A stretch of 64,000 nucleotides of DNA, taken from NCBI GenBank assembly GCA_025350245.1, contig JANXYG010000052.1, positions 12,265-76,264 of the forward strand. Reading direction: 5' to 3'. Below are positions 651 through 63,885 of this stretch, in pieces (within the stretch, counting starts at the first letter, position 1; every line of letters starts with the position of its first letter). The notes below the pieces were generated by a model. That model was not told the DNA's origin, did no database searches, and worked only from the letters and a program-made list of their open reading frames with translations. Source of the stretch: Betaproteobacteria bacterium (GTDB lineage: Bacteria; Pseudomonadota; Gammaproteobacteria; Burkholderiales; Ga0077523). Both the position numbers and the translations under genes were made by a program.

Positions 651-749
651 GCCAAGCGAAGGGGCAACATCCGCAGGGTTCCCCGAGGAATGTTGCGCCC
701 CCTGGAGGGGGAAGGCGGAGCGTAGCAAAGCCTGGGGGTGGGCGTCACC
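651..749 (-). repeat. Structured intergenic repeat, family A, distal copy of a tandem pair (sense strand is minus)
   Basis: Sense read: GACGCCCACCCCCAGGCTTTGCTACGCTCCGCCTTCCCCCTCCAGGGGGCGCAACATTCCTCGGGGAACCCTGCGGATGTTGCCCCTTCGCTTGGC. Hairpin 1 is CCCCCTCCAGGGGG; hairpin 2 stem is GCAACAT/ATGTTGC. Confidence 0.9.
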
Positions 750-836
750 TGGGGCAACATCCGCAGGGTTCCCCGAGGAATGTTGCGCCCCCTGGAGGGG
801 GAAGGCGAAGCGCAGCGCAGCCTGGGGGTGGGTCAC
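750..836 (-). repeat. Structured intergenic repeat, family A, proximal copy of a tandem pair; starts 2-3 nt after the ptsI stop
   Basis: Near-identical to 651-749, with the same two hairpins. Preceded on the sense strand by TGAATGTGAC (ptsI stop codon plus leader). Confidence 0.9.
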
Positions 837-838
837 AT

Positions 839-2563
839 TCAGCCTGCGTTGAGTTTTTCGAGCAGGGCGTACATCTTGTCGGGCTCATCGGTGCGCAGCA
901 TGCGCCTGGCGATCTGGGCGACCTCATCGAGATCGGATTTGAGCACCACGCGCTTCACCGACAACACGTTGGCCGGATGCATCGAGAACTGGCGCAGGCC
1001 GAACCCGAGCAGCAGACGCGTGAGCGTGGGGTCGCCGGCCATTTCGCCACACACTGCCACCGGCTTGCCGGCCTTGGCGCCAGCCTGGATGATGCCGGCG
1101 ATCAGCTGCAGGACGGCCGGGTGCAGCGGGTCGTAGAGATGCGCCACGGCGTCATCGGTGCGGTCGATCGCGAGCGTGTACTGGATCAGGTCGTTGGTGC
1201 CGATCGACAGGAAGTCGAGCTTGCGAGTGAAGATGCCGAGCGAGAGCGCCGCGGCGGGGATCTCGATCATGCCGCCGACCGGGATCGCCGGATCGAAGGC
1301 GATCTCGTCGTCCTCGAGGCTGCGTTTCGCCTCGGCAATGGCCTGCAGGGTCTGGTTCAGCTCGTGCAGCGACGACAGCATCGGCACCAGCAGCCTGACC
1401 TTGCCGAAGGCCGACGCCCGCAGGATCGCGCGCAGTTGCCGCTGGAACATCTGCGGTTCGGCTAGGCATAGCCGGATCGCGCGGAGGCCCAGCGCGGGAT
1501 TCGCCGACACCCGTTCGGTGCCGTGCAGTTCCTTGTCGGCGCCCAGATCGAAGGTGCGGATGGTGACCGGCAACCCGTCCATCTCGGTCACGACCTTGCG
1601 ATAGGCCTCGAACTGCTCGTCCTCGTCCGGCAGGCCGCGCCGGTTCAGGTACAGGAATTCAGTCCGGAACAGGCCGATACCGGCTGCGCCCGCGGTGCGC
1701 ACCTGGTCGACGTCGCCGGGCAGCTCGATGTTCGCGTGCAGTTCGATGCGGGTACCGTCGAGCGTGGCCGCGCGGGTGGTCTTGAGGCGTTGCAGCTTCT
1801 GCCGGTCGAGATCCCATTCGTCCTGGCGCAGCCGATATTCGGCCAGCGTGGTTTCGTCCGGGTTGACGATGACCACGCCATGGCCGCCATCGACGATCAG
1901 CAATTCGTCTTCGCGCACCAGCTTGCGCGCGTGGTGCAGGGCGACGATGGACGGGATGCCCAGACTGCGCGCGACGATTGCGGTGTGCGACGTGGTGCCG
2001 CCCAGGTCGGTGATGAAGCTCGCGAACCGGTGCTGCTTGAACAGGATGACATCGGCGGGCGAAAGATCGCGGGCAACCAGGATGCTGCCGTCCTCCGGCG
2101 AGGCGATGGCGGCGCTGGTGGTGTCGAGTATGAGCGCCGCGAGCACGCGCTCGACCACCTGGCGCACATCGGTCTTGCGCTCGCGCAGGTAGGGGTCGTC
2201 GATGCGATCGAACTGCTCAAGCAGCGCCTCCATCTGTTGCTTGAGCGCCCACTCGGCATTGCACAGTTGCGCGGCGATCATGGCCTTCGGTGCCGCCGCG
2301 ATCATCTCGTCGCCCAGGATCATCAGGTGGACGTTGAGAAACGCGCCGAACTCGGCCGGCGCGTTGTGCGGGATGTGGCTCGCCAGTTGTGACAACTCGC
2401 CCCGCACCCGGCCGATCGCCGATTCGAAGCGCGCCTGCTCCTGCGCGACATCGGCCTCGGTGATCTCGAGGTGCGGCACCTCGAGCTGGGCGTGGGTGAC
2501 CAGGTGCGCCCGGCCGATGGCGATGCCGCTGGAGACGCCGATGCCGTGGAGAGTGAAGCTCAT
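839..2563 (-). CDS. ptsI: Phosphoenolpyruvate-protein phosphotransferase (PTS enzyme I)
   Basis: ORF 839..2605. MSFTLHGIGVSSGIAIGRAHLV is a typical EI N-terminus, with phospho-His region GGTTSHTAIVARSLGIP and C-terminal PEP-utilising domain FLSIGTNDLIQYTLA. Start set at ATG 2563; the track's 2605 start is a TTG. Start uncertain. Confidence 0.9.
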   Translation of the reverse strand: MSFTLHGIGVSSGIAIGRAHLVTHAQLEVPHLEITEADVAQEQARFESAIGRVRGELSQLASHIPHNAPAEFGAFLNVHLMILGDEMIAAAPKAMIAAQLCNAEWALKQQMEALLEQFDRIDDPYLRERKTDVRQVVERVLAALILDTTSAAIASPEDGSILVARDLSPADVILFKQHRFASFITDLGGTTSHTAIVARSLGIPSIVALHHARKLVREDELLIVDGGHGVVIVNPDETTLAEYRLRQDEWDLDRQKLQRLKTTRAATLDGTRIELHANIELPGDVDQVRTAGAAGIGLFRTEFLYLNRRGLPDEDEQFEAYRKVVTEMDGLPVTIRTFDLGADKELHGTERVSANPALGLRAIRLCLAEPQMFQRQLRAILRASAFGKVRLLVPMLSSLHELNQTLQAIAEAKRSLEDDEIAFDPAIPVGGMIEIPAAALSLGIFTRKLDFLSIGTNDLIQYTLAIDRTDDAVAHLYDPLHPAVLQLIAGIIQAGAKAGKPVAVCGEMAGDPTLTRLLLGFGLRQFSMHPANVLSVKRVVLKSDLDEVAQIARRMLRTDEPDKMYALLEKLNAG

Positions 2564-2621
2564 GTGTGGCGGTGCCGGTTTCGGGGTCGGATCAACGCGA
2601 TTCAAGCGCTGCGCAGGGACG

Positions 2622-2891
2622 CTACTCGCCCTCCCCGAACCGGGCCGCGATCAATTCCATCAGGGCCTGCATCGCTTCGGCTTCGTCGGGTCCGTCGGTT
2701 TCAACGGCCACCTTGGTTCCCTTGGCCGCGGCCAGCATCATCACGCCCATGATGCTCTTGGCGTTCACCCGGCGGCCATTGCGGGTGAGCCACACTTCGC
2801 ACTGATACTTTGCGGCGAGTTGCGTGAGCTTGGCGGACGCACGCGCGTGCAGCCCCAGCTTGTTGACGATATCAACGTCCCGTTGCTGCAT
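2622..2891 (-). CDS. ptsH: HPr-family phosphocarrier protein
   Basis: 89 aa from the internal Met of ORF 2622..3020: MQQRDVDIVNKLGLHARASAKL, with the active-site His in GLHARAS. Lies between the EIIA and EI genes. Confidence 0.9.
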   Translation of the reverse strand: MQQRDVDIVNKLGLHARASAKLTQLAAKYQCEVWLTRNGRRVNAKSIMGVMMLAAAKGTKVAVETDGPDEAEAMQALMELIAARFGEGE

Positions 2892-5865: not shown

Positions 5866-7107
5866 ATGCCTTATCAGCTACTCCGCTTCGCGTTCTCGTC
5901 GAAGCATCCCGAACCCCGCATGTTCCGCGAGCCGGATCGGCTCAAGGACACGTACGACGCCGTTATCATCGGCGCCGGCGGGCATGGCCTTGCAAGTGCC
6001 TACTATCTGGCGCGCGACCATGGAATGACGAATGTAGCGGTGCTCGACCGCGGCTATCTCGGCGGCGGCAACACCGGGCGCAACACCGCGATCATCCGGT
6101 CGAACTACCTCACGCCCGAGGGTGTTGCCTTCTACGATCAGTCGGTGCGTCTGTGGCAGGACCTCGCCCAGGACTTCGACCTCAACCTTTTCTACTCCAC
6201 GCGCGGCCACTTCACGCTCGCCCACACTGATTCTGCGGTGCGGACCATGCGCTGGCGGGCCGAGGTCAACAAGCACTTCGGCATCGACAGCGAACTGGTT
6301 GGCCCCGACGCCGTCGGCAAGGCCTGTCCGCAGATGGATCTGAGCTGCGGCGGTCACGCGCCGATCATGGGGGCCCTCTACCATGCGCCCGGCGCGATCG
6401 CCCGACATGATGCCGTTGCCTGGGGCTATGGGCGCGGCGCCGACCAGCGCGGCGTCGAGATCCATCAGCAGACCGAAGTGCTCGGCATCGATGTCGAGGC
6501 CGGGCAGGTCAAGGGCGTTCGGACCTCGAAGGGCTACATTTCCACGCGCAAGGTCCTGTGCGCCGTGGCCGGGTTCACCCCGCGCGTGTGCGACATGGTC
6601 GGGCTGCGCACGCCGATCTACATTCATCCGTTGCAGGCCATGGTGACCGAACCGCAGAAGCCGTGGCTCGATCCCATCCTGGTGTCGGGCAGCCTGCATA
6701 TCTATGTGAGCCAGTCCGCGCGGGGCGAACTGGTCATGGGCGCCTCGCTCGACCCCTACGAACTGCATTCGACCCGGTCCACGCTCGACTTCGTGGAGGG
6801 GCTCTCGGCACACATGCTGGACCTGTTCCCGTTCCTGTCGAACGCCCGCATCAACCGGCAATGGGCCGGCATGGCGGACATGACCCCTGACTTCGCGCCG
6901 ATCATGGGCAAGACGCCGGTGACCGGGTTCTACCTCGATTCGGGCTGGGGCACCTGGGGTTTCAAGGCAACGCCGGTGTGCGGCAAGACCATGTCGTACA
7001 CGCTGGCCAATGACCGCAACCATCCTCTGATCGAAGGGTTCGGCCTGGCGCGCTTCGAGCGCTACGAGCTCACCGGCGAGAAGGGTGCCGCCAGCGTGGG
7101 GCATTGA
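5866..7107 (+). CDS. mgdA: N-methylglutamate dehydrogenase / heterotetrameric sarcosine-oxidase family, beta subunit (FAD)
   Basis: 413 aa. DAVIIGAGGHGLASAYYLA dinucleotide fold; GGNTGRNTAIIRSNY is typical of SoxB. Followed by the delta, alpha and gamma subunits. Confidence 0.85.
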   Translation: MPYQLLRFAFSSKHPEPRMFREPDRLKDTYDAVIIGAGGHGLASAYYLARDHGMTNVAVLDRGYLGGGNTGRNTAIIRSNYLTPEGVAFYDQSVRLWQDLAQDFDLNLFYSTRGHFTLAHTDSAVRTMRWRAEVNKHFGIDSELVGPDAVGKACPQMDLSCGGHAPIMGALYHAPGAIARHDAVAWGYGRGADQRGVEIHQQTEVLGIDVEAGQVKGVRTSKGYISTRKVLCAVAGFTPRVCDMVGLRTPIYIHPLQAMVTEPQKPWLDPILVSGSLHIYVSQSARGELVMGASLDPYELHSTRSTLDFVEGLSAHMLDLFPFLSNARINRQWAGMADMTPDFAPIMGKTPVTGFYLDSGWGTWGFKATPVCGKTMSYTLANDRNHPLIEGFGLARFERYELTGEKGAASVGH

Positions 7108-7225
7108 AATGAAACGCCCACCCCCAGGCTGCGCTGCGCTGCGCCTTCCCCCTCGAGGGGGCGCCCCGTTCCTCGGGGGACCCTGCGGACGGGGCCCCTT
7201 CGCTTCGGGTATGCCCTTCGTTCAC
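7108..7225 (+). repeat. Structured intergenic repeat, family A, full-length copy
   Basis: The 12-mer TGAAATGAAACG (7105-7116, including the mgdA stop) is followed by CCCACCCCCAGGCTGCGCTGCGCTGCGCCTTCCCCCTCGAGGGGGCGCCCCGTTCCTCGGGGGACCCTGCGGACGGGGCCCCTTCGCTTCGGGTATGCCCTTCGTTCAC. Confidence 0.9.
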
Positions 7226-7296
7226 CTGGCGGGCTCGCAGGGCCTCGCGGGTCGCGCGCCGAGGTCGGCGCCCCACGGGGCCGAGGCGGGACGCAC

Positions 7297-7575
7297 ATGA
7301 AGCTGCTGCGCTGCCCGGTAAACGGGGTTCGCCCGGTATCCGAGTTCGCCTACGGCGGCGAGATCCGGTCGATGCCGGCCGACACCTGCTCCGATATCGA
7401 GTGGGCACACTATGTATTCAACCGCAGCGGGGTTCCCGGCGTGAAGGTGGAGTGGTGGTATCACATCGCCAGCGGCACCTGGTTTCACGCCGAGCGCGAT
7501 ACCGTGACCGACCGTGTGCTGCGCACCTGGCTCCCCGGCGACCTGCCGCCGGCGGCGGACGGTAAGGCGGCATGA
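7297..7575 (+). CDS. mgdB: Sarcosine-oxidase-family delta subunit
   Basis: 92 aa. MKLLRCPVNGVRPVSEFAYGGE...WWYH is the typical SoxD zinc-ribbon-like N-terminus. ATGA overlap with the next gene. Confidence 0.85.
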   Translation: MKLLRCPVNGVRPVSEFAYGGEIRSMPADTCSDIEWAHYVFNRSGVPGVKVEWWYHIASGTWFHAERDTVTDRVLRTWLPGDLPPAADGKAA

Positions 7576-10535
7576 CCTTCTCCACCCAGCGCCCGGTTAC
7601 GGCGGGCGCACCGGACATCGGGGCGAGCACCACCCCGGCACCGCCCGGACGTCTGCCTGTCATCGCTGGCGAATGGATCGACCGGACCAGGCGGCTCGCT
7701 TTCACCTTCGAAGGCAAGGCCTTTTCCGGATTCGACGGCGACACACCATCGAGCGCACTGTGGGCCGCCGGCGTGCGTATTCTCGGTCGCAGCTTCAAGT
7801 ACCACCGCCCGCGCGGTCTGTTGTCGATGGCCAATCACGATATCAACGCGCTGATGCAGGCGGGCCCACGGCTCAATTTGCGGGCCGACGTGGAGCCGCT
7901 CGAGGCCGCGCTGAATCTCACCGCGGTCAACACCCACGGCGGGGTCGACGTCGATCGCGCACGCCTGCTCGGCTGGTTCGGCGGGTTGTTGCCGGTGGGC
8001 TTCTATTACAAGGCGTTCCACAAGCCGAAGGCACTGTTTCCGTTCTGGGAGCGGCTGTTTCGCCGCATCACCGGCCTGGGCCGGGTGGAGTTCGACGCGC
8101 CGCACGTGCGCACCCCGAAGCGCTATGACTTCGCCGACCTGCTGGTGGTGGGAGCAGGGCCTGCCGGCTTGATGGCGGCACTGACCGCTGCGCGCGCTGG
8201 CGCGAAAGTCGTGCTGGTCGACGAGAACGCGCGCATCGGCGGCTCGCTCGGCTACCAGCGCGGCGGCAACGACGACACGCTGGCGCGGCTGCGAGCGCTC
8301 GAATCGCAGTTGGCCGAATTGCCGAATGTCTCGGTACGGACCAGCACTCTCGCTGCAGGGTGGTACGCCGATCACTGGGTGCCGCTGGTCGATGCGAAGC
8401 GCATGACCAAACTCCGCACGCGCGCCGTGCTGGTGGCTGGTGGCGCCTACGAACAGCCGGCCGTATTCCGTAACAACGACCTTCCCGGGGTCATGCTCGC
8501 GTCGGCCGCGCAGCGTCTCATCTACCGCTACGGCGTCAAGCCGATGGACAACGCGGTGGTGCTGACGGCAAATGCCGATGGCTACGTGGCGGCGCTGGAT
8601 CTGCTGGCCCAGGGCATCGGGGTTCCCGCCATCGTCGATCTGCGCCCCGAGGGCGACGCCTCCGACCTGCCGACCCGCGCCAGGCAGCTCGGCATCCAGG
8701 TGCTCGAAGGCCATTGCGTGTTCGAGGCCGAGGGGGGCAATCGCCTGGCCGCGGTGGTGGTGTGCCCGACCGATGCCGATGGCAGGCCGCAGACCTCGGC
8801 ACCGCAGCGCATCGCGTGCGATGGCCTGCTCATGAGCGTGGGCTGGGCGCCGGCCGCACCGCTGCTGTATCAGGCCGGGACCCGCATGGGTTTCGACACG
8901 ACGGTGCAGCAGTTTGTACCCCGCGAACTGCCGGCAGGCATGTTCGCGGCGGGCCGGGTCAACGGCGTGTTTGCGCTCGAAGCCAAGCTGCTCGATGGCG
9001 AACGCGCCGGGGCCGAGGCGGCGCGCTTTCTCGGGTTCGCCGCCACCTCGCGCATCACCGATCGCCCCACTGAAACCACGTCGCCGTCGCACCCGTGGCC
9101 GATCGTGGAACACGCCTCGGGCAAGAATTTCATCGACTTCGACGAAGACCTGCAGTTGCGCGACTTCTACAACGCCGCGCAGGAAGGCTTCGACAATATC
9201 GAGCTGATGAAGCGCTACACGACGGTGGGCATGGGGGCGTCGCAGGGCAAGCACTCGAACATGAACGCCATCCGGATTCTCGCGCGCATCCGTGGCCGCA
9301 CCCCGGGCGACATCGGGACCACCACCGCGCGCCCGTTCTTCCACCCGGTGCCGATGTCGCACCTGGCCGGACGCGGCTTCAGCCCGCATCGCGAGACCCC
9401 GCTGCATTCCCGGCACGAGGCCTTGCGCGCGGTCTGGATGCAAGCCGGCATCTGGCTTCGTCCCGAGTACTACGCCGCGCCGGACAAGACCCGTATCGAA
9501 CTGGTGCGCGAGGAAGCCGCCGCGGTGCGCAAGGCGGTCGGCCTCATCGACGTCGGCACGCTCGGCAAGATGGAGTTGTTCGGTCCCGATGCCGGCGAGT
9601 TCCTCGAGCGTGTCTACACCGCGCGCTTCGCCAACCTGAAGGTCGGCATGACCCGCTATGCGGTGATGCTCGACGAAGCCGGCGTGGTCATCGACGACGG
9701 CGTGGTTGCCCGGCTGGCGCCCGAGCACTTCTATTTCACCACCACGACCACCGGCGCGGCCACGGTCTATCGTGAGCTCCAGCGCCTGAATGCCATGTGG
9801 GGCCTGCGCATCGGCATCGTCAATGCCACCGGCGCCTTCGCGGCGATGAATCTGGCCGGGCCGGGTTCGCGCGCGGTGCTTGCGGGACTCACCGCCCTCG
9901 ATCTTGCAGACGCGGCGTTCCCCTATCTTGCGGTGCGCATCGGCGAAGTCGCCGGTGTCACCTGCCGCCTCATGCGGGTCGGGTTCGTCGGCGAACTCGG
10001 CTACGAGATCCACGTGCCGGCCGATCAGGCGGCAAGGGTCTGGGACGCCATCATGGCTGCCGACGCCGGTGTGCGGCCTTTCGGTGTCGAGGCGCAGCGC
10101 CTGTTGCGTCTGGAAAAGGGCCACATCATCGTCGGCCAGGATACCGACGGTCTGACGCAGCCCGACCAGGCAGGTCTGACCTGGGCGGTCAAGACCGACA
10201 AGCCGTTTTTCGTCGGCAAGCGCAGCGTCGAGATCGTGCGCAAGGGCGCGGTCCGGCAACGTCTGGTGGGATTCGATCTCACGGTCGCACCAGGCGGCCC
10301 CGTGCCCAAGGAATGTCACCTCGTCATCCGCGACGGCAACATCGCGGGCCGGGTCACCAGCATCGCCTGGAGCGACGCCCTTCAGCGTCATATCGGCCTT
10401 GCCTTCGTCGAGCCCGATCTTGCCGTGGACGCCACGCCTTTTTTCATCCGCGCCGACGGTGGCCTGATGGTGCAGGCCAAGGTGGCTCCGACCCCGTTCT
10501 ACGATCCGGCTGGCGCACGCCAGAAGCTGGCATGA
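7572..10535 (+). CDS. mgdC: Sarcosine-oxidase-family alpha subunit
   Basis: 987 aa. LLVVGAGPAGLMAALTAARAG nucleotide-binding fold, and a C-terminal aminomethyltransferase (GcvT-like) folate-binding domain. Confidence 0.9.
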   Translation: MTFSTQRPVTAGAPDIGASTTPAPPGRLPVIAGEWIDRTRRLAFTFEGKAFSGFDGDTPSSALWAAGVRILGRSFKYHRPRGLLSMANHDINALMQAGPRLNLRADVEPLEAALNLTAVNTHGGVDVDRARLLGWFGGLLPVGFYYKAFHKPKALFPFWERLFRRITGLGRVEFDAPHVRTPKRYDFADLLVVGAGPAGLMAALTAARAGAKVVLVDENARIGGSLGYQRGGNDDTLARLRALESQLAELPNVSVRTSTLAAGWYADHWVPLVDAKRMTKLRTRAVLVAGGAYEQPAVFRNNDLPGVMLASAAQRLIYRYGVKPMDNAVVLTANADGYVAALDLLAQGIGVPAIVDLRPEGDASDLPTRARQLGIQVLEGHCVFEAEGGNRLAAVVVCPTDADGRPQTSAPQRIACDGLLMSVGWAPAAPLLYQAGTRMGFDTTVQQFVPRELPAGMFAAGRVNGVFALEAKLLDGERAGAEAARFLGFAATSRITDRPTETTSPSHPWPIVEHASGKNFIDFDEDLQLRDFYNAAQEGFDNIELMKRYTTVGMGASQGKHSNMNAIRILARIRGRTPGDIGTTTARPFFHPVPMSHLAGRGFSPHRETPLHSRHEALRAVWMQAGIWLRPEYYAAPDKTRIELVREEAAAVRKAVGLIDVGTLGKMELFGPDAGEFLERVYTARFANLKVGMTRYAVMLDEAGVVIDDGVVARLAPEHFYFTTTTTGAATVYRELQRLNAMWGLRIGIVNATGAFAAMNLAGPGSRAVLAGLTALDLADAAFPYLAVRIGEVAGVTCRLMRVGFVGELGYEIHVPADQAARVWDAIMAADAGVRPFGVEAQRLLRLEKGHIIVGQDTDGLTQPDQAGLTWAVKTDKPFFVGKRSVEIVRKGAVRQRLVGFDLTVAPGGPVPKECHLVIRDGNIAGRVTSIAWSDALQRHIGLAFVEPDLAVDATPFFIRADGGLMVQAKVAPTPFYDPAGARQKLA

Positions 10536-11200
10536 CCGCCACGATGCGCACGAGTCCGCTCGCCGTTGCGGTTGCCGGTCGCAAGCCCGAACTGCGCGAG
10601 GTGCACGGCATGCCGGTGCCCGCGCGGTTCCCGGGTGAACGCGACACCTGGAAGGCAACGATCGGCATCTGCGACGTGTCGGCGCTGGTGCGTGCCGGCC
10701 TGAAAGGGCCCGGTGCCGAAGCCTGGCTCGCGGCTCGCAACGTGCCGGTCCCGGCGGCGGCCAACAGTTGGACCCATGCCGGCGGCGGACTGGTCGCACG
10801 GCTCGCCCGCACCGAGTTCCTGATCGAAGACGGCTGCGACGACGTCGCGGCCGCGCGACTGCGAGCCGAGCTGCAGGCGGGCGAGCCCGGCGTCTATCCG
10901 GTGATACGCCAGGACTGCGCGCTGGCGCTGGCGGGGGCCGCCGTGAACGAACTCCTGGTGCAGACCTGCAACGCCGACTTCGCCTCGCAATCGGCGGCCG
11001 ATTCCATCGTGACTCTCACCCAGATGGTCGGCGTGTCGGTGACGGTGCTGCGCGACGATCGCGGCACCGTGCCGTGCTACCGCGTCTGGTGCGACGGCAC
11101 CATGGGTCCGTATTTCTGGGAAACGCTCATCGGCATCGCCGAGGAACTCGGCGGTGGTCCGGTCGGCATCGCCAGCTTGTTCGCCGATACCGCCACCTGA
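10532..11200 (+). CDS. mgdD: Sarcosine-oxidase-family gamma subunit
   Basis: 222 aa from ATG 10532 (ATGA overlap with the alpha stop), in the frame of ORF 9797..11200. Size and position fit SoxG. Confidence 0.75.
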   Translation: MTATMRTSPLAVAVAGRKPELREVHGMPVPARFPGERDTWKATIGICDVSALVRAGLKGPGAEAWLAARNVPVPAAANSWTHAGGGLVARLARTEFLIEDGCDDVAAARLRAELQAGEPGVYPVIRQDCALALAGAAVNELLVQTCNADFASQSAADSIVTLTQMVGVSVTVLRDDRGTVPCYRVWCDGTMGPYFWETLIGIAEELGGGPVGIASLFADTAT

Positions 11201-11236
11201 TCCACCCACCACTGCAATCGCGAGGGGAAGCCGCCG

Positions 11237-12571
11237 ATGACACCCGCACAGGCCAGGAAGTTCTTCAAGGACAACGAGATCCGCTACATCCTCGCGCAGT
11301 TCGTGGACATCCACGGCACGGCGAAGGCCAAGGCGGTGCCGGTCGAGCACCTCGACATGGTCCTCGAGAACGGCGCCGGTTTCGCCGGCTTCGCGCTCTG
11401 GGGCTTCGGCATGGGCCCGCACGGCCCGGACTACATGGCGAAGGGCGACCTCACCACGTTGCAGGCGATGCCCTGGATGCCGGGCTTCGCGCGCATGGCG
11501 ACCTATGGCTACACCAACAACAAACCGTACGCGTACGACTCGCGGTACGCGCTCAAGCTGCAGCTCGACCAGCTCACGGCCAAGGGCCTCACGCTCTTCA
11601 CCGGTATCGAACCCGAGTTCATGCTGCTCAAGCGCGCGCCCGATGGCAGCATCGCGCCGTGCGATGACACCGATACCCTCGAGAAGCCCTGCTACGACTA
11701 CAAGGGGTTGGCGCGCAGCGCCGCGTTTCTCGACAAGTTCACGCAGTCGCTGCGCGCGGTGGGCATCGACGTGTACCAGATCGATCACGAAGACGCGAAC
11801 GGCCAGTTCGAGGTGAACTTCACCTACTCGGACGCGCTGACCTCGGCGGACCGCATCATCTTCCTCAAGATGGCAGCGTCGGAAATCGCCCACCAGATGG
11901 GCCTGATCGTGACCTTCATGCCCAAGCCGTTCTCGAATCGCACCGGCACCGGTTCGCACTTCCATCTGTCGATGGGCGACGGCAAGACCGCGAACCTGTT
12001 CCACGACGACAAGGACAAGCAGGGCCTCGGGCTGTCGAAGATGGCGTACCAGTTCCTGGGCGGCCTGCTGGCACACGCGCCCGGCCTGACCGCGCTGTGC
12101 GCACCGACGGTCAACTCGTACAAGCGGCTCGTGGTCGGCCGCGCGCTGTCGGGCGCGACCTGGGCGCCGGCCTACATCGCCTACGGCGACAACAACCGCA
12201 CCTGCATGGTCCGGGTGCCGTACGGGCGCCTGGAACTGCGCCTGCCGGATGGCGCGATCAATCCCTACCTGGTGACGGCCGCAGTGATCGGCGCCGGCAT
12301 GGACGGCATCGCGAACAAGGTCGATCCGGGTGCGCCGGTCAACGAAAACCTCTACGAGTGGTCGCCGAAGCAACTGGCCGACGCCGGCATCAAGGTCCTG
12401 CCGCAGAACCTCAGCGAGGCCCTGGATGCACTCGAAGCGGACGACGTCCTGTGCACAGCGCTCGGTCGCGATCTGGCGGCAGAGTTCATCCGGCTCAAGC
12501 GCATGGAATGGGTGGAGTACTCGCGCCATGTGTCGGCGTGGGAGGTCGAGCGGTACCTTGAATTCTTCTGA
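11237..12571 (+). CDS. gmaS: Glutamine-synthetase-family enzyme, predicted gamma-glutamylmethylamide synthetase
   Basis: 444 aa type-III-like GS fold ([28 protein letters not shown]). Sits between the mgd and mgs genes, as in described NMG clusters. Confidence 0.8.
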
Positions 12572-12665
12572 AATGAAACGTCCACCCCCAGGCTCCGCTG
12601 CGCTACGCCTTCCTCCTCGAGGGGGCCGGTGTCCTCGGGGGGGCCGGTTGTGGGCACCGTGGGAG
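12569..12665 (+). repeat. Structured intergenic repeat, family A (diverged 3' half)
   Basis: The same 12-mer TGAAATGAAACG contains the gmaS stop. It is followed by TCCACCCCCAGGCTCCGCTGCGCTACGCCTTCCTCCTCGAGGGGGCCGGTGTCCTCGGGGGGGCCGGTTGTGGGCACCG. Hairpin 2 stem is CGGTG/CACCG. Confidence 0.85.
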
Positions 12666-12672
12666 ACATGAC

Positions 12673-13569
12673 ATGTGCGGAATCGTAGGACTTCTGATCA
12701 AGAACCCGGCGCTGCGGCCCCGGCTCGGCGAGTTGATGACGCCCATCCTCGATGAGATGGCGGCGCGCGGGCCCGAGTCGGCCGGTCTGGCCGTGTTCAC
12801 CGACCAGCTCAGTGGAGTGCAGCGCAAGTACAGCATCCACGCGCCGATATGGGGCTACGACTGGTCGGGATTCGAGGCGAGATTCATCGAGCGCTTCGGC
12901 ACCGAAGCGCAACTGGCGGTGACGGGCAATCATGCCGTGCTGGTGTGCGACGAGGCGCCCGCCGCGGTCAAGAAATGGACGCAGGAGCACTTCGGGCAAT
13001 TGCACGTGCTCTCCGCCGGCCGTGTGATCGATGTCTACAAGGATATCGGCCACCCGAGCGAGATCGCGCTGCGCTACGACTTTCGCAAGCTGTCTGGCAC
13101 CCACGTCGTCGGGCACACGCGCATGGCTACCGAATCGGCGGTCACGCCGGATCGTGCCCATCCGTTCACCGCGGGCGAGGATTTCTGCCTGGTGCACAAC
13201 GGCACGATCTCGAATCCGTACATGATCCGGCGCAAGCTGGAGCATCGCGGCATCGTGTTCGAGACCGACAACGACACCGAGGCCGCAACCCGGTTCCTCG
13301 AGTGGCGCATGCGCGAAGGCGATTCGCTCGAGGACGCGCTGCGCCAGGGCTTTCGCGAGCTCGACGGCTTCTACACGTTCCTCATCGGGACCGACACCGA
13401 ACTCGCGCTGGTGCGCGATGCCTTCGCCTGCAAACCCGCGATCGTTGCCGAGACTGACGATTACGTCGCCATCGCCTCGGAGTTCCGCGGGCTCGCGCAT
13501 CTGCCGGGCGTCAACAATGCCCACCTCTTCGAACCGATGCCGGAGGAGCTCTACGTATGGAAAGTGTGA
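12673..13569 (+). CDS. mgsA: N-methylglutamate synthase subunit A (class-II glutamine amidotransferase, GltB N-domain-like)
   Basis: 298 aa beginning MCGIVGL (Ntn-type catalytic Cys2). Confidence 0.85.
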   Translation: MCGIVGLLIKNPALRPRLGELMTPILDEMAARGPESAGLAVFTDQLSGVQRKYSIHAPIWGYDWSGFEARFIERFGTEAQLAVTGNHAVLVCDEAPAAVKKWTQEHFGQLHVLSAGRVIDVYKDIGHPSEIALRYDFRKLSGTHVVGHTRMATESAVTPDRAHPFTAGEDFCLVHNGTISNPYMIRRKLEHRGIVFETDNDTEAATRFLEWRMREGDSLEDALRQGFRELDGFYTFLIGTDTELALVRDAFACKPAIVAETDDYVAIASEFRGLAHLPGVNNAHLFEPMPEELYVWKV

Positions 13570-50471: not shown

Positions 50472-50494
50472 CGTCGATCGGCTGGTCTGGCTGA

Positions 50495-51028
50495 TTACTG
50501 GACGATGTGGCGGACAGCTTCCGCGAGGTCGGCGAACACGCGCGTGCCCTCCGGGAATCCGCCGGCGGCCATGGTCTTCACGCCCTTGCCGGTGAGCACC
50601 AGCATGGGTTGCGCGCCACCGGTGTGCGCCGCCTGCAGGTCGCGCAACGAATCGCCGACGCCGGGCACCCCGGCAAGGCTGATGCCGAAGCGTTGCGCGA
50701 TCTCGAGGAACATGCCGGGTTGGGGCTTGCGGCACTCGCAGTTGTGATCCGCCGCGCAAGGGCAATAGAACACCGCATCGATGCGACCGCCCACCTGACC
50801 GAGCATGCGGAACATCTTGTCGTGGATGGCGTTGAGCATGGCCATGTCGAACAGTCCGCGCCCGATGCCGGACTGGTTGGTGGCGACCACCACATGGAGA
50901 CCGGTGTGGTTGAGACGGGCGATCGCTTCGAGACTGCCCGGGATCGGCTTCCACTCCTCGGGAGACTTGATGAAGTGGTCGCTGTCGACGTTGATCACGC
51001 CGTCGCGGTCGAGTATGACGAGCTTCAC
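50495..51028 (-). CDS. gmhB: D-glycero-beta-D-manno-heptose-1,7-bisphosphate 7-phosphatase
   Basis: 177 aa. HAD motif ILDRDGVIN; Zn-binding CPCAADHNCECRKP. GTGA overlap with the glyS stop. Confidence 0.85.
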   Translation of the reverse strand: MKLVILDRDGVINVDSDHFIKSPEEWKPIPGSLEAIARLNHTGLHVVVATNQSGIGRGLFDMAMLNAIHDKMFRMLGQVGGRIDAVFYCPCAADHNCECRKPQPGMFLEIAQRFGISLAGVPGVGDSLRDLQAAHTGGAQPMLVLTGKGVKTMAAGGFPEGTRVFADLAEAVRHIVQ

Positions 51029-53127: not shown

Positions 53128-53227
53128 GACAGTCCGGAGCGAAGGGGCAGCGCCCACAGGGCTCCCCGAGGACGCTGCGCCCCCTCGGGGGGAAGGCGAA
53201 GCGCAGCGCAGCCTGGGGGGGGCGTTC
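53128..53227 (-). repeat. Structured intergenic repeat, family A, filling the entire glyQ-glyS spacer (sense is minus)
   Basis: Sense read: TGAGAACGCCCCCCCCAGGCTGCGCTGCGCTTCGCCTTCCCCCCGAGGGGGCGCAGCGTCCTCGGGGAGCCCTGTGGGCGCTGCCCCTTCGCTCCGGACTGTC followed directly by ATG (glyS). Confidence 0.9.
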
Positions 53228-54112
53228 TCATGCTGCCCTCTGGTTCGCGGCGAGCATCGGAAAGCCCAGTCGCTCGCGCGACTGGTAGTAGGCCTGCGCC
53301 ACCGCCCGGGCGAGCGTGCGGATGCGCCCGATGTACCCGGCCCGCTCGGTCACGGAGATGGCTCCCCGTGCGTCGAGCATGTTGAAGGTGTGCGCGCTCT
53401 TGAGCACCATCTCGTAGGCGGGAAGTGCCAGTCCGACGCCGATCAGGCGCTTCGCCTCGCCCTCGAAGTCGTTGAACTGCCGCAACAGCCAGTCGGCATT
53501 CGAGTGCTCGAAGTTGTAGGCCGACTGCTCGACTTCGTTCTGGTGGAATACGTCGCGGTAGGTGATGCCCGGCGTCCACACCAGGTCGAACACGTTCTCG
53601 ACGCCCTGCAGATACATGCACAGGCGTTCGAGGCCGTAGGTGATCTCGCCCAGCACCGGCTTGCAGTCGATGCCGCCGACCTGCTGGAAATAGGTGAACT
53701 GTGTCACTTCCATGCCGTTGAGCCAGACCTCCCAGCCCAGCCCCCAGGCGCCGAGCGTGGGATTCTCCCAGTCGTCCTCGACCAGGCGGATGTCGTTGAT
53801 CGTCGGGTCGATGCCGATGGCTTCGAGCGAACCGAGATACAGGTCGAGGATGTCCTGCGGCGCGGGTTTCAGAACCACCTGGAACTGGTAGTAGTGCTGC
53901 AGCCGGTTCGGGTTGTCGCCGTAGCGACCGTCTTTCGGGCGGCGCGAGGGTTGCACGTAGGCCGCACGCCAGGGCTCCGGCCCCAGGGCGCGCAGGAACG
54001 TCGCGGTGTGCGAGGTTCCTGCGCCGACCTCCATGTCGTAGGGTTGCACCAGCGCACAGCCGCGCATGCCCCAATAGTTCTGGAGCGTGAGAATGAGGTC
54101 CTGGAAATGCAT
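53228..54112 (-). CDS. glyQ: Glycine-tRNA ligase alpha subunit
   Basis: 294 aa from the internal Met ([14 protein letters not shown]) of ORF 53228..54244. Confidence 0.95.
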
Positions 54113-54277
54113 TCGCCGTGATTGGAGTTTTTGCCGCGACGCAGTGCCCGTGCCCGTGTCGCTCGAGCGGCGAGTGTAACTGCTGTCAGGACGCGGCGGG
54201 ATCAACGCCGGCAACCCCGGCGCGATTCGATGCCCCGACCGCACGGTGCCGCCGGGTTGTGCCGTTGGTCGGGGCCG

Positions 54278-55288
54278 CTACTTGCGAGCGCGCAGTTGCT
54301 CGATCTGCCCTTCGAGAATTTCGATCCGCCCCTGCAACTGGTTGAGCAGATTGTTGACGCGGCCGACGTTGAAGTACGAGACGCTCTCGGCCGGCGCGTC
54401 GATCTGATTGCCATAGCCGAGCCAGGACGAGTCGTATACCTTGACCTTGTCGAAACCGAGCGTCTGCAACACCGCCGCGGTGTTCGATGCCCTGACGCCG
54501 CTCTGGCAATAGACGATGGTCTCCTTGGTGCGATCGAGCTTCGCGTACAGTCTCAGGAGTTGTTCCTCGGACTTGAGATCGAAGCCGTCCTTGTTCGCGA
54601 CCAGCTTGCGTTGCAACTTGCGTGGGGTATCGGGGTCGGCCCAGTTGGCCTCGTACGGGATGTTGATCGCGCCGGGGATGTGGCCGCCGCGCAATGCCCG
54701 CACGTCGTCGCCGGCGAATTCCTTCGCCGTGCGGGCATCGACGATCTGCACGTCGGGCTGGTCGAGGCTGGCGATCATCTCCCGGGTGGACACCAGCGTG
54801 CCGGCGTTCGGTCGCAGAGCGAGGGCGATCGTCGGCAGGCGCGTGGGGTCGGTCGCGGTCGGTTTACCGGCGGCCTTCCAGTCGTCGATGCCGCCGTGAT
54901 AGACGCTGGCGCGATTGCCGCCCAACCACTGCATGGTGATGAGGCCGAAGTAAGGACTGGTGGCCGCCTTGGCGCCATAGAGCACGATCTCCCGCGCCGG
55001 ATCGATGCCGGCATCACCGAGCAACTGTTGTAGTTGCGCGACTGGCAGATAGTCTTCGGTCCTGGCGTCGCGTAGCTGGACCAGCACATCGTCGATGTTG
55101 ACCGCGCCCGGAATGTGACCCTGGCGATAGTCTTCCTCGGCGCGGACGTCCCAGATCAACGCGCCGCGAGCGCGGGCGGCCTCGACCTCATCGGTGCCCA
55201 CGATCGGGGCTGCAATGGCACTCGCCGCAGTCGCGAGCGCGGCGACGAGCAACAGACACAAGGACAAGGGCTTGGCGGGGTTGGTCAT
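54278..55288 (-). CDS. Periplasmic tandem-rhodanese sulfurtransferase with a C-terminal coiled coil
   Basis: 336 aa from the internal Met of ORF 54278..55681, with an AGGAGA RBS. Signal peptide, two rhodanese domains and active-site loop CQSGVRAS. Confidence 0.75.
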   Translation of the reverse strand: MTNPAKPLSLCLLLVAALATAASAIAAPIVGTDEVEAARARGALIWDVRAEEDYRQGHIPGAVNIDDVLVQLRDARTEDYLPVAQLQQLLGDAGIDPAREIVLYGAKAATSPYFGLITMQWLGGNRASVYHGGIDDWKAAGKPTATDPTRLPTIALALRPNAGTLVSTREMIASLDQPDVQIVDARTAKEFAGDDVRALRGGHIPGAINIPYEANWADPDTPRKLQRKLVANKDGFDLKSEEQLLRLYAKLDRTKETIVYCQSGVRASNTAAVLQTLGFDKVKVYDSSWLGYGNQIDAPAESVSYFNVGRVNNLLNQLQGRIEILEGQIEQLRARK

Positions 55289-60928: not shown

Positions 60929-61004
60929 TGGTGGCGAATCAGGGATTTGAACCCCGGACCAACGGATTATGATTCCGCTGCTCTAACCGCTGAGCTAATT
61001 CGCC
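60929..61004 (-). tRNA. tRNA with anticodon CAU; body resembles the lysidine-modified tRNA-Ile2 type rather than initiator or elongator Met
   Basis: Sense read: GGCGAATTAGCTCAGCGGTTAGAGCAGCGGAATCATAATCCGTTGGTCCGGGGTTCAAATCCCTGATTCGCCACCA (76 nt, encoded CCA). A cloverleaf can be drawn by hand. It lacks the 3 G-C pairs of an initiator anticodon stem and is similar to my recollection of E. coli ileX. Confidence 0.85.
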
Positions 61005-61027
61005 ATGACCCCTTCGCAGGGCCGCAG

Positions 61028-61056
61028 AATGTACTTTTCCGACCCCCCCTTGTCAA
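61028..61056 (-). promoter_or_regulatory. Sigma70-type promoter for the tRNA
   Basis: Sense read: TTGACA-17 nt-TACATT followed by a GC-rich discriminator CTGCGGCC. The -10 element ends 23 nt before the mature tRNA 5' end. Confidence 0.7.
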
Positions 61057-61060
61057 CCAA

Positions 61061-61130
61061 GTGAGACCCACCCCAGGTTGCGCTGCGCTGCGCCTTCTCC
61101 CAATGGGGCGCCGCGAGCTTGGGAGCGGCC
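61061..61130 (+). repeat. Structured intergenic repeat, short A/B-intermediate copy; the only one not behind a co-oriented stop codon
   Basis: GTGAGACCCACCCCAGGTTGCGCTGCGCTGCGCCTTCTCCCAATGGGGCGCCGCGAGCTTGGGAGCGGCC. Ends 3 nt before the ubiH-family ATG. Confidence 0.8.
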
Positions 61131-61133
61131 ACC

Positions 61134-62294
61134 ATGACTGATACCGATGTGGTGGTCATCGGTGCCGGATTGGTCGGCGCCGCCTTCGCGCTGGCGGCAA
61201 GCCGCATCGGGTTTCGGGTCGACCTGCTCTCCAACGCGGGGCCGCCGATGCCGCCGGGTCCCAACCCCGGCAGGGTTTACGCCCTGAGCCAGGGCAGCCG
61301 GGCGCTGTTGCAATCGATCGGCGTCTGGCAGCGGCTCGATCCGGCTCGCATCCAGGCCGTGGTCGGCATGCGGGTGTCAGGCGACCGCCCCGGCGCCGGG
61401 ATCGACCTCGATGCCCTCGACGGTGGCGTCGAGGCCCTCGCCTGGATCGTCGAGAGCGATGCCGTCGCCTGGGCTTTGGCGGAGCAGGTTGCCACCGATG
61501 ACGGGATCACGTGTCGGTGCCGGGCGCACCCGGTGTCGCTGCGTATCGATGCCGGCGCGGCGCATGTGGCGCTCGCGGATGGCAGTTCGTATCGGGCCGC
61601 CTTGCTGGTGGGTGCCGACGGGCGGGATTCGTGGGTACGCACCGAAGTCGGTATCCGGGTGCGGGGTCGCAACTATGCCCACCAGGGCGTGGTGGCGAAC
61701 TTCACCGCCGAGAGGGCGCACGGCGGGATCGCACGCCAATGGTTTCGCACCGATGGCGTGCTCGCGTTGCTTCCCATGCCATCGAAACAGGTGTCCATGG
61801 TGTGGTCTGCGCCCGATGCGGTGGCTGCGGACCTGATGGCGCTGGACGACGGCGCCTTGTGCGAACGGGTCATGGGCGCCACCGGCGATTGCCTCGGCAC
61901 TCTGCGGCTGGTCACACCGCCGTCATGTCTGCCGATCACACTGGGTCATGCCCGGCAGTTGGTCGGTCCGCGCCTTGCCTTGGTCGGAGACGCCGCCCAT
62001 AATCTTCATCCGCTTGCCGGACAGGGCGTCAATCTGGGTCTGCGCGATGTCGGCGCCTTGTGCCGGATTCTCGGCGCCGACGTACGCAGGGAACCCGGCG
62101 CTGTTTCGGTACTCCGACGTTACCAGCGGTCGCGCCGTGAAGACGTAGCGACCATGATCGCCCTCACCGACGGGTTGCAGCGGCTGTTTTCCAGCCGCCT
62201 TCCCGGTATCGCGTGGGCACGCAACCGCGGGCTTGATCTGGTATCCCGCCTGCCCCATCTCAAGGGACTGCTGCTGCAACACGCGTTGCGCTGA
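61134..62294 (+). CDS. UbiH/UbiF/VisC/COQ6-family FAD-dependent ubiquinone-biosynthesis hydroxylase
   Basis: 386 aa from the internal Met (MTDTDVVVIGAGLVGAAFA) of ORF 61119..62294. Signature GDAAHNLHPLAGQGVNLG. Confidence 0.85.
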   Translation: MTDTDVVVIGAGLVGAAFALAASRIGFRVDLLSNAGPPMPPGPNPGRVYALSQGSRALLQSIGVWQRLDPARIQAVVGMRVSGDRPGAGIDLDALDGGVEALAWIVESDAVAWALAEQVATDDGITCRCRAHPVSLRIDAGAAHVALADGSSYRAALLVGADGRDSWVRTEVGIRVRGRNYAHQGVVANFTAERAHGGIARQWFRTDGVLALLPMPSKQVSMVWSAPDAVAADLMALDDGALCERVMGATGDCLGTLRLVTPPSCLPITLGHARQLVGPRLALVGDAAHNLHPLAGQGVNLGLRDVGALCRILGADVRREPGAVSVLRRYQRSRREDVATMIALTDGLQRLFSSRLPGIAWARNRGLDLVSRLPHLKGLLLQHALR

Positions 62295-62332
62295 GCAGTT
62301 TCAGCTCTCCAATCCACCCTCAGGAGCCGTTC

Positions 62333-63064
62333 ATGTTGCAGCGAATCCTCGCGCGCGCCCTTTCCGCTTCCCTTTTCGTGGCCGTCGCCGCCCATGCCGA
62401 TGAAGCCTCGGTGAAGAAGGCATTTCTCGCCAAGTTCCCGAAGGCGACCGTCGATACGGTCACCAAGCTCAAGGATCTGCCCCTGTACGAGATCGTCATT
62501 CCGCGCAGCGGCGAGCCGGTGATCATCTACACCGACGAAGCCTTCAGTTTCATCATGCAAGGCAACGTGGTCGACAACAAGACCGGCGTCGATCTCACCG
62601 AGCAAAAGAAGAACAAGCTCACCGCGATCGATTTCGATTCCCTGCCTCTCGACAAGGCAATCAAGAAGGTGAAAGGCACCGGAGCGCGCAAGGTCGCGGT
62701 GTTCACCGACCCCGACTGCCCGTTCTGCAAGCGCATCGAGCAGGAATTCGAGAAGATGACCGATGTCACCATCTACCTGTTCCTGTTTCCCATCGAGCAG
62801 TTGCACCCCAAGGCGCCGCAGCGGGCAAAGGCCATCTGGTGCTCGCCGAACCGGCTCAAGGCCTGGGACGACTACGTGTTGCGGGGCGTCCTGCCCACGG
62901 CTGCGGGAGATTGCGACAACCCGATCGATGCGCTGATCGAGCTCGGACAATCCAAGGGCATCAATGCCACGCCGACACTGGTGTTTGCGGATGGCAGCAA
63001 GGTGCCAGGCGCGCTCAACTCAAGCCAGCTCGAACAGCAGCTCACGGCGGCCGGCAGAAAGTAG
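62333..63064 (+). CDS. dsbC: Thiol:disulfide interchange protein DsbC
   Basis: 243 aa. Signal peptide, dimerisation N-domain and a thioredoxin fold with CPFC. Confidence 0.85.
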   Translation: MLQRILARALSASLFVAVAAHADEASVKKAFLAKFPKATVDTVTKLKDLPLYEIVIPRSGEPVIIYTDEAFSFIMQGNVVDNKTGVDLTEQKKNKLTAIDFDSLPLDKAIKKVKGTGARKVAVFTDPDCPFCKRIEQEFEKMTDVTIYLFLFPIEQLHPKAPQRAKAIWCSPNRLKAWDDYVLRGVLPTAAGDCDNPIDALIELGQSKGINATPTLVFADGSKVPGALNSSQLEQQLTAAGRK

Positions 63065-63102
63065 ACGCAGACAGCACGCGAGGCGGGCCGGGCCCCGCGG
63101 CG

Positions 63103-63813
63103 ATGGTTGCCGGTCCCGTGATCCCGGTGAGGAGGCTCGCCTTGTTTGTCGCTGCGTCGGCGTGCATCCATGGGCTGATTCTCGCAGTGCCGGTGACCGC
63201 GATGCGATCGCCGGGTGTTCCGGGGTCTGGTTCGGCGGTGGCGACGCTGCAGTTGCGCCTGGCAACCGCGCCGGCAAAGGCGGTCCCGAAAGCCGGGACG
63301 ACGCCGAGTCCGGAGCACAAGGCCGTGATGTCGGCCGCAGTGCCGGATGCCGCACCCGTCCGGACCGAGGCAGACCGGCGCCCCGAACCGGCGCCGGTTC
63401 CTGAATCCCCGCCCGATTCCGCCGCTGCGCCGGCCGGCGACGCACCATCGGCCGAACCGGCCGCCGCGATCCCGATCCCGCAGATCGCCGATCCCGAATA
63501 CCTGCCGTCACGTCTGCTCGATGTCTATCCGAAGCCCATGGCCGAGGTGCCCATGGTCTATCCGGATGCCGCGGCATCGATCGACATGAGCGGCCGGGTC
63601 ACCCTGCTGCTGCTGATCGACGAACTCGGATCGGTGGTCGAGGCGAGCGTGGTCGAGGCGGTTCCACCCGGCTACTTCGAGCAGGCGGCCGTGGATACCT
63701 TCCGCGGCGTGCTGTTCGCGCCCGGGATGCGCGATGGCCGTCCGGTCAAGAGCCGGCTCGTGGTCGAGGTGTCGTTCGAAGCCCGAGCCGAGTCGGCCCG
63801 CGGGGCTCGCTGA
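63103..63813 (+). CDS. TonB-family protein (energy-transducer C-terminal domain)
   Basis: 236 aa from the internal Met of ORF 62839..63813. N-terminal TM anchor, a Pro/Ala-rich spacer and a C-terminal YP..A...GRVTLLLLIDELGSV..EASVVEA domain. Confidence 0.65.
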   Translation: MVAGPVIPVRRLALFVAASACIHGLILAVPVTAMRSPGVPGSGSAVATLQLRLATAPAKAVPKAGTTPSPEHKAVMSAAVPDAAPVRTEADRRPEPAPVPESPPDSAAAPAGDAPSAEPAAAIPIPQIADPEYLPSRLLDVYPKPMAEVPMVYPDAAASIDMSGRVTLLLLIDELGSVVEASVVEAVPPGYFEQAAVDTFRGVLFAPGMRDGRPVKSRLVVEVSFEARAESARGAR

Positions 63814-63885
63814 GAGTTGCCCCCCCCAAGCGTCCTTCGGTCGCTACTCCCAATGCGGGGCCAGTTCCCTTGTGGAGTGAGGCCA
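63811..63885 (+). repeat. Structured intergenic repeat, subfamily B
   Basis: TGAGAGTTG (includes the stop) is followed by CCCCCCCCAAGCGTCCTTCGGTCGCTACTCCCAATGCGGGGCCAGTTCCCTTGTGGAGTGAGGCC. Collinear with 47551-47636. Confidence 0.8.

Follow-up and report, generated by a model that had tools for sequence, protein, structure and literature searches.

Supply and colleagues reportedly described the interspersed repetitive units of mycobacteria (MIRUs) in 1997. MIRUs are oriented, tandem repeats with an internal open reading frame (ORF) that is coupled at −4 (PMC12548453). Sequences of the repetitive extragenic palindromic (REP) type are palindromes of 20–40 bp with a GTAG or CGTC tag; they occur mainly as inverted dimers, head-to-tail dimers are negligible and most lie downstream of genes (PMC3733652). 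Here we analyse a family of short intergenic repeats in a 64,000-nucleotide stretch of DNA from a Betaproteobacteria bacterium (GenBank assembly GCA_025350245.1, contig JANXYG010000052.1, positions 12,265 to 76,264 of the forward strand), hereafter called the window; the organism is known from metagenomes only. The units lie in sense orientation, start at a stop codon and are crossed by an ORF, which points to a MIRU-like element rather than a REP. On balance, we favour the reading that the family is a MIRU-like, non-autonomous intercistronic repeat that keeps translational coupling.

A preliminary description, made from the letters of the window, had listed 13 copies and one remnant. All 13 copies were confirmed at their coordinates, and they sum to 1254 nt, or 1.96% of the window, in line with the ∼2% that had been estimated there. 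A 24-mer core gave six matches with three or fewer mismatches in the window and none in shuffles. A profile made from 11 copies (nhmmer) recovered the same 11 in the window, and a separate repeat-finding program also recovered the family. The preliminary description had further expected the family to extend past the window, and strong enrichment was indeed found. Scanning reference genomes by the head pattern gave at least 72 loci, mostly from the metagenome-assembled genome (MAG) Betaproteobacteria bacterium OTE_88 and a few from MAG GFS_541; a set of 163 copies was gathered from the window and 72 loci, including those of the sister MAGs. Over the ∼15 kb that it shares with the window, OTE_88 has 93–95% identity and is therefore a sister species. 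In addition, one window gene was found identical in MAG GCA_043726285.1 and in short assemblies that break off within the repeat.

A covariance model was built on 58 full copies and searched with filters off. It found 12 of the window copies at E<1e-3, including that at 47534–47632(−), and did not detect the copy at 63811–63885. The copies at 63811 and 47551 share a variant head, CCCCAAGCKTCCTTCGGTCGCTAC. The exact variant-head pattern had no match in the collected loci; intermediates of it were found in the sister genome by a fuzzy search, which places both copies in the same superfamily. The exact head 11-mer, CCCACCCCCAG, had six exact matches in the window, all within family copies, and it is present in the remnant at 28151, directly 3′ of a stop codon. 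There were no Rfam matches on any repeat copy, either at the gathering threshold or at E≤1; the preliminary description had likewise assigned the family to no named class. The 58 genes called in the window are all ordinary housekeeping genes. No transposase, REP-associated tyrosine transposase (RAYT), integrase or reverse transcriptase is encoded among them, as had already been noticed for the first two. The family is real and abundant.

The units are ∼65–120 bp long and are either single or arranged head-to-tail, with up to four per array. In the sense direction, the consensus starts after the stop codon with RR-NTGA-(A)(A)CG-YCC(A)CCCCC. The C-run is followed by AGGC-TGCGCTGCGCTNC-GCCT (helix H0), a single T, CCCCC-TCGA-GGGGG (helix H1), CGC and then H2, a long hairpin with a variable outer stem and a conserved interior, TCCTCGGGGRACCCTGYGG. 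The unit closes with an optional CCCTTCG tail, CCCCTTCGCTTC...CCCTTCGTTCA. Where two hairpins had originally been read, we thus found three helices, and the GCGCT x3 run that had been assigned to a 5′ arm is the loop of the short helix H0 (AGGC/GCCT). The 3′ half of the unit is built from interchangeable modules, of which at least two or three alternative hairpins were seen, and there is also a second type of head.

Across the 58 full copies, standard pairs filled 97.6% of the pair cells, compared with 45–59% where the partners were slid. Compensatory changes were seen at one pair of H0 (G–C to C–G) and at three pairs of H2. Helix pairing was more complete in the sense strand (97.6%) than in its complement (91.7%), with 93 G–U pairs set against 17 A–C. 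Folding energies ranged from −39 to −55 kcal/mol, with single-sequence Z-scores of −1.2 to +1.4 that were not significant relative to shuffles. This reflects the very GC-rich DNA, and support for the structure therefore comes only from covariation. All three sense frames of the body are open in 47 of the 58 copies; on the antisense strand, this holds for 25 of 58. The median identity between copies is 84.5%, with some unlinked pairs reaching 98.8%. There are two fixed types of unit junction, and junctions recur with microhomology (e.g. GGGCGCTG followed by ACGCC in locus L026).

The position of the repeat relative to genes, which the preliminary description had not noticed, was determined using a simple codon-usage gene caller made for this analysis. 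The gene upstream had the same orientation as the repeat for 132 copies and the opposite one for 17; several of these 17 are second units behind a truncated unit. The copies form 107 arrays (62 single, 35 double, nine triple and one quadruple). None of the 107 has mixed orientation, and all 45 multi-unit arrays run head-to-tail. Where an array lies between co-oriented genes, it was in the sense orientation in 54 cases and antisense in six (p=1e-10); other arrays are in convergent (17) or divergent (seven) spacers. For first copies, the head begins 0–3 nt past the stop codon in ∼40 of 70 cases and in ∼16 of 70 the stop codon is supplied by the TGA of the head itself. The stop codons preceding the element were TGA in 53 cases, TAG in 13 and TAA in four, which matches the background usage (68/22/10%); targeting specific to TGA was therefore rejected. 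As copies in convergent spacers still abut stop codons, coupling alone is insufficient to explain the position.

The NTGA of the head is a start codon that overlaps a stop codon. A base other than C (A, G or T) fills the N position in 44 of 47 heads, in a genome that is ∼33% C. The ORF that begins at the head NTG crosses the element, often through two or three units. Its end falls −4 to +3 nt from an in-frame start codon of the following gene in 26 of the 47 arrays that have co-oriented genes on either side. The same was true of only ∼9% of control frames. At 14 of the 26 junctions between the ORF and the next gene, the two are joined by an NTGA overlap. Where successive hand-overs had a spacing of −4 to +5, they were defined as a chain. 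An unbroken chain from the upstream stop codon to the downstream gene was observed for 35 of 54 arrays, compared with 10.6 expected from shuffled spacers, in which base composition only is kept. Within the same DNA, chains were closed in 61% of the element-bearing spacers and 27% of the element-free spacers, and in 0.79 Mb of GC-rich relatives without the family the value was 22% (Fisher 1.5e-7). The ORFs in the window were checked base by base, and the downstream starts at 7297, 12673 and 47543 match independent database gene calls.

These observations suggest how a MIRU-like repeat could persist within an operon. A ribosome ending the upstream gene would terminate at or beside the head, restart at the head NTG and translate the whole insert, and the relay would end on, or a few bases from, the start codon of the next gene. 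An operon insert of 100–400 nt would thereby leave coupling intact and give no long untranslated RNA, from which the host might also benefit. Most probably, the element is a selfish repeat that is not autonomous. It would spread to stop codons and stop–start junctions, presumably by means of a mobilising enzyme, and its arrays would expand and contract in tandem. The conserved hairpins would probably be recognised for copying, or would protect untranslated RNA. The MIRU-like reading explains why arrays point in the sense direction, why the head is NTGA, why the body is free of stop codons and why there are more closed chains than expected.

Several points weigh against this reading. A closed chain is lacking in 19 of the 54 operon-type arrays, and no hand-over is possible for the 24 of 84 arrays that are found in convergent or divergent spacers. 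No Shine–Dalgarno sequence is evident upstream of the head NTG, and the strong hairpins could impede a restarting ribosome. Three body frames are used across the copies (15, 7 and 4 times) without a conserved peptide. The compensatory changes imply that there is also selection on the folded form, for which the relay has no need, and neither this helix covariation nor the abutment to stop codons in convergent spacers is explained by the relay alone. Together, the stop abutment in convergent spacers and the compensatory changes suggest targeted insertion and a folded form that acts in copying or in RNA protection. Finally, the statistics rest on a simple gene caller and on loci that were chosen by pattern, mostly from one MAG. 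A conserved small protein was considered as a separate possibility and rejected, as three frames are in use.

Comparison with related genomes provided filled and empty versions of the same sites. At the glyQ–glyS junction, which is filled by the element in the window, the genes of relatives are −4 to +22 nt apart (an ATGA overlap or 5–22 nt). Locus L063 of GFS_541 has an empty junction with an ATGA overlap; its ortholog in OTE_88 (L065) has an element of ∼150 nt that is flanked by ATGA at either end. At the lysA junction, one relative has a GTGA overlap and others have other genes. The element therefore arrives at or beside junctions that had no prior spacer, an outcome that would be rare if insertion were random and selection acted afterwards. 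Copy number also differs: a single unit is present at the window site 43591, compared with three at its orthologous locus, L051 of OTE_88.

The rival explanation that survives best, which we regard as possible though unlikely, is that the family is palindromic DNA of the REP or bacterial interspersed mosaic element (BIME) type that is moved by a RAYT and works either at the DNA level, as a site, or as a hairpin in RNA that stabilises mRNA or brings about termination. The through-ORFs would then be a by-product of selection against polar insertions. The GC-rich hairpins with compensatory changes and the high-copy, lineage-specific distribution are as expected for such elements, as is the location downstream of genes (PMC3733652). 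Weaker elements in Polaromonas and in two betaproteobacterial contigs, described below, keep the architecture with changed stems, as co-evolving REP–RAYT pairs do, and a RAYT may be encoded elsewhere in the genome. In contrast to these points, the arrays are head-to-tail only, whereas REPs form head-to-head or tail-to-tail dimers (PMC3733652). The units have three helices within 65–120 bp and no GTAG or CGTC tag was found beside the palindrome; GACG, which is complementary to CGTC, occurs in the head but at a distance of ∼10 nt from the closest helix. When the window and the 72 loci (0.55 Mb) were searched with Escherichia coli RayT (tblastn and phmmer), no credible homologue was found (best E 0.08), and a weak match in locus L077 was rejected on follow-up as being no transposase. 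REPs are not characterised by a position at stop codons, an NTGA head or an excess of closed chains. Between 36000 and 54500, no terminator-like site was seen on the sense strand of a repeat, and copies lie within essential operons such as glyQS. The preliminary description had implied a REP, BIME or miniature inverted-repeat transposable element (MITE) framework. This was not supported: besides the single arrangement of the arrays and the missing tag, no convincing terminal inverted repeat or target duplication was seen.

A further alternative, which we consider rather unlikely, is that the family is active mobile DNA that targets stops and stop–start overlaps, with any stop codon being used, and that the start/stop overlap and the body open in all frames are adaptations to this. 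As to a target-site duplication, ATGA flanks two of the operon inserts (glyQS and L065), resembling a 4-bp duplication. However, the flanking ATGA is equally well explained by the head NTGA together with the original start codon. In closer relatives, the glyQ–glyS spacers are 5–22 nt long and the glyS start is always ATGA. No direct duplication was seen after the tails, and head and tail are linked only by a 6-nt match, TGAACG/CGTTCA, in full type-A copies.

A regulatory leader or intercistronic peptide switch, in which the small ORF would act as a sensor and for example stalling on the prolines of the C-run that depends on elongation factor P (EF-P) would tune the downstream gene or Rho-dependent polarity, is a doubtful explanation, although it may hold for some copies. 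The commonest frame encodes MKRPPPGCAALRLPP..., with PPP and LPP motifs, and the stop codons of the ORFs overlap the downstream starts. The copy at 61061 provides an upstream ORF overlapping a start codon in a promoter-side spacer, and alternative pairing of the C-run and G-run could in principle form a switch. Against this, polyproline is encoded in only one of the three frames used, the flanking genes are functionally unrelated, the copy number varies between sister genomes and relatives manage without the element.

It is more doubtful still that the family is a minisatellite, or variable number tandem repeat, that changes by slippage and unequal recombination and has spread by gene conversion between stop contexts without transposition. 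One and three units at orthologous sites, the junction microhomology and the two fixed junction types would all fit. Pure slippage explains the change in array size but not the presence of the repeat at more than 100 unlinked loci. Nor does a minisatellite agree with filled sites that are gene overlaps in relatives, or with the identity of up to 98.8% between unlinked copies. Integron attC-like sites or intrinsic terminators after gene cassettes, which would likewise be sense-oriented imperfect palindromes following stop codons, are effectively refuted by gene content and synteny: the flanks are housekeeping genes syntenic with relatives that lack the element, copies lie inside operons, the window has no integrase, there are no RYYYAAC/GTTRRRY core sites, and none of 15 terminator-like sites (36000–54500) is on the sense strand of a repeat, which has no T-run.

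Among the matches listed, the family is abundant only in the window species and two sister MAGs. No copy is present in ∼1.1 Mb from related Betaproteobacteria: 96 kb of the closest relatives retrieved (GlyQ 87–89% identical) and 1.0 Mb of metagenome contigs with GlyQ 74–85% identical. A GlyQ-guided metagenome search and near homologues gave empty sites only and no additional carriers, and no family match was found in plasmids (by BLAST) or in viral contigs (by pattern scan). Several short-read assemblies of the organism (L002–L005) stop inside the repeat at 7108–7225, at window positions ∼7135–7143; the family thus fragments assemblies of this lineage. The head pattern also matched L011, L019, L024, L032, L053, L057 and L069, which are contigs binned as Abditibacteriaceae, Nitrospinaceae, Anaerolineales, Alphaproteobacteria and Acetobacteraceae, and an Aromatoleum plasmid. 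Among these, only L069, a 3.4-kb contig that is probably mis-binned, has a full element (85 bits), the others being partial or chance matches.

Outside the carriers, the covariance model also found single, weaker elements that have the same architecture with different stem sequences (L015 2549–2652, L059 5788–5891, L099 7605–7705 and L144 9533–9616). Their layout is a C-run, H0, a CCCC/GGGG hairpin and a long hairpin. One such element is shared by two Polaromonas genomes, in which it occupies orthologous sites, and two more are in other betaproteobacterial contigs; in L099 and L144 the element comes immediately after a stop codon. These elements hint at a superfamily that extends more widely and may usually be kept at low copy number.

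Table 1. Repeat copies in the window and the reading frames that cross them, with covariance model scores and adjoining genes
Feature	Positions	Strand	Score (bits)	Sequence features	Relation to neighbouring genes
Repeat, unit 1 of two-unit head-to-tail array	750–836	−	84.6	No tail	Head ATGTGAC begins 2 nt past stop (841–839) of phosphoenolpyruvate-utilising (ptsI-like) gene
Repeat, unit 2 of same array, full type-A	651–749	−	106.7	Head GGTGACG, H0, H1, H2, start of tail	
Small ORF, 70 codons	624–836	−		Starts at head GTG; runs through units 750–836 and 651–749	TGA overlaps (GTGA) start at 627 of DNA polymerase III delta-like (holA-like) gene
Full type-A repeat	7108–7225	+	110.1	Head AATGAAACG, H0, H1, H2, double CCCTTCG tail	Directly 3′ of DAO/soxB-like stop (7105–7107)
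Small ORF, 63 codons	7109–7300	+		ATG 7109 is 1 nt past upstream stop	TGA 7298–7300 overlaps (ATGA) SoxD-like start 7297
Repeat with variant 3′ hairpin	12569–12665	+	62		Fills spacer from glutamine-synthetase-like stop (12569–12571) to amidotransferase ATG 12673
Small ORF, 32 codons	12573–12671	+		Starts at head ATG	Stop is 1 nt before ATG 12673 (amidotransferase, MCG...)
Head-only remnant	28151–28180	+		GCGGACACCCACCCCCAGCC; exact 11-mer; missed by covariance model	Adjoins stop of HTH-cupin regulator gene 27578–28150
Full type-A unit with tail, first of two-unit array	37105–37219	+	102.4		Directly 3′ of metH stop (37102–37104)
Second unit, 5′-truncated	37220–37330	+	82.5	Joined to first unit by recurrent tail-to-head junction, CGTTCA followed by GCGCCCCCAGG	
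Stop-free frame from head TTG	37106–37393	+			In frame with downstream M61-like peptidase gene (start ∼37394 by independent gene call); runs on to 38956
Full type-A repeat	39437–39559	+	87.8		After DUF2214 gene stop (39437–39439)
Degenerate partial unit	∼39560–39640	+		TTCTCGGGGGATGCTGCGG ... CCATTCGTTCC; also in sister MAG	3′ of copy 39437–39559
Small ORF, 63 codons	39442–39633	+		Starts at head ATG	Ends 16 nt before amidase ATG 39650; chain unclosed by the strict definition
Type-A repeat	43591–43700	+	100.6	Duplicated head GGTGACAGGTGACG	After mgtE stop (43591–43593); head GTG 43602 in frame with downstream esterase gene
Short copy	46326–46392	−	45.4	Head, H0, H1, type-C 3′ module	Convergent spacer; directly 3′ of TAG stop of gene 46386–47000(−)
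Variant-head copy	47551–47636	−	24.4 (E 6e-4)		Fills lysA-to-GNAT spacer
Small ORF, 28 codons	47543–47629	−		Starts at head TTG	TGA (47545–47543) overlaps GNAT ATG 47543 (TGATG)
Type-A repeat	53128–53227	−	101.6		Fills whole glyQ–glyS spacer
Small ORF, 35 codons	53124–53231	−			ATG overlaps glyQ stop (ATGA); TGA overlaps glyS ATG (ATGA)
Short copy	61061–61130	+	40.1	Head, H0, H1, type-B hairpin	
Variant-head copy	63811–63885	+		Type-C-like 3′ module	After TonB-C gene stop (63811–63813)

The positions of the individual copies and ORFs are given in Table 1. The copy at 39437 has a conserved counterpart in the sister MAG, at the orthologous position L051 6625–6719, and population-level contigs covering this site have identical spacing throughout, with no polymorphism. 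The short copy at 61061–61130(+) is in a divergent spacer (60929–61141 region) between a tRNA-Met gene (−) and an FAD-monooxygenase gene; from its head GTG, a 26-codon upstream ORF (61061–61141) overlaps the FAD-monooxygenase ATG at 61134 by 8 nt. Opposite the short copy at 46326–46392, an MsrQ-like gene with a ferric-reductase domain (45686–46369, +) ends within the antisense strand of the repeat, and its last ∼14 codons and stop codon are therefore derived from the repeat.

Other features were noted in the surrounding genes. The HTH-cupin regulator gene next to the remnant has a paralog at 15713–16306, with ∼72% identity to 27578–28150 over ∼400 nt. Directly upstream of the gene for a methionine synthase of 1249 amino acids (33355–37104), in this betaproteobacterial host, there is a match to the SAM-II (SAM_alpha) riboswitch at 33237–33313(+), with 36.7 bits relative to an Rfam threshold of 36. 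The cluster at 5866–15681(+), which holds two repeat copies, resembles the N-methylglutamate route of methylamine use. It contains genes for sarcosine-oxidase-like subunits (DAO, SoxD, SoxA-like and GCV_T), a glutamine-synthetase-like protein, an amidotransferase, and GXGXG and glutamate-synthase-domain proteins. At 18437–26437(−), a gene for an N,N-dimethylformamidase-like large subunit lies with a small adjacent ORF and an ABC transporter of the amide/urea type (Peripla_BP_5, two permeases and two ATPases).

Short repeats between genes tend to be classed as REPs or MITEs and regarded as hairpins. If the MIRU-like reading is correct, this family would instead act as a 'translated linker', and the orientation of such repeats and their abutment to stop codons would be explained as well. 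A translated-linker repeat family of this type is apparently new to the Betaproteobacteria, no counterpart having been found in Rfam or in a small sample of the literature. On the MIRU-like reading, the MIRU solution would be a general way for selfish DNA to live in operons beyond the mycobacteria. On the less likely reading of active mobile DNA that targets stops, the strategy of the MIRUs would have arisen twice independently, here in hundreds of copies. The frame with proline runs could in that case also make the hand-over dependent on EF-P, providing a genome-wide handle on operon polarity, and so dense a family could be a route to the enzyme that moves MIRU-like elements. For annotators, hundreds of spacers would hold unannotated ORFs, and some gene ends and stop codons would be derived from repeats.

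Compared with known systems, the family shares with attC sites of the VCR type the structured repeats of 60–140 bp that follow the stop codon of each ORF in a fixed orientation. Unlike attC sites, it has no cassettes, integrase or core sites, and its neighbours are syntenic housekeeping genes. Rickettsia palindromic elements lie within coding genes and end up in the encoded proteins. The present family resembles them, and other in-frame repeats, in being a palindromic repeat that would survive by staying open for translation, but it lies between genes and has a separate small ORF. With REPs, BIMEs and REPINs it has in common the high-copy, GC-rich extragenic palindromes, mostly 3′ of genes and transcribed, and a lineage-specific sequence with conserved architecture and mosaic modules. 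It differs from these in its strictly head-to-tail units of 65–120 bp with three helices, in the NTGA start at the stop codon and in the through-ORFs.

The closest likeness is to MIRUs. Both are short (∼50–100 bp) intergenic repeats within operons, in one orientation relative to transcription, with head-to-tail arrays of variable copy number and no known transposase. In both, a small ORF overlaps the flanking genes with its start and stop (−4), so that coupling is kept. A unit length that is a multiple of three, as in MIRUs, was rejected as a general property of the present family, as spacings of 78, 81 and 90 nt were found but also of 80, 85, 106 and 107 nt. In contrast to MIRUs, the present family has three covarying helices and a modular 3′ part and uses all three frames; it also occurs after stop codons in convergent spacers and is far denser, with ∼1 copy per 5 kb in the window. 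The host here is an uncultured Betaproteobacterium and the likeness is one of arrangement; the family is therefore treated as an analogue of the MIRUs and not as a member.

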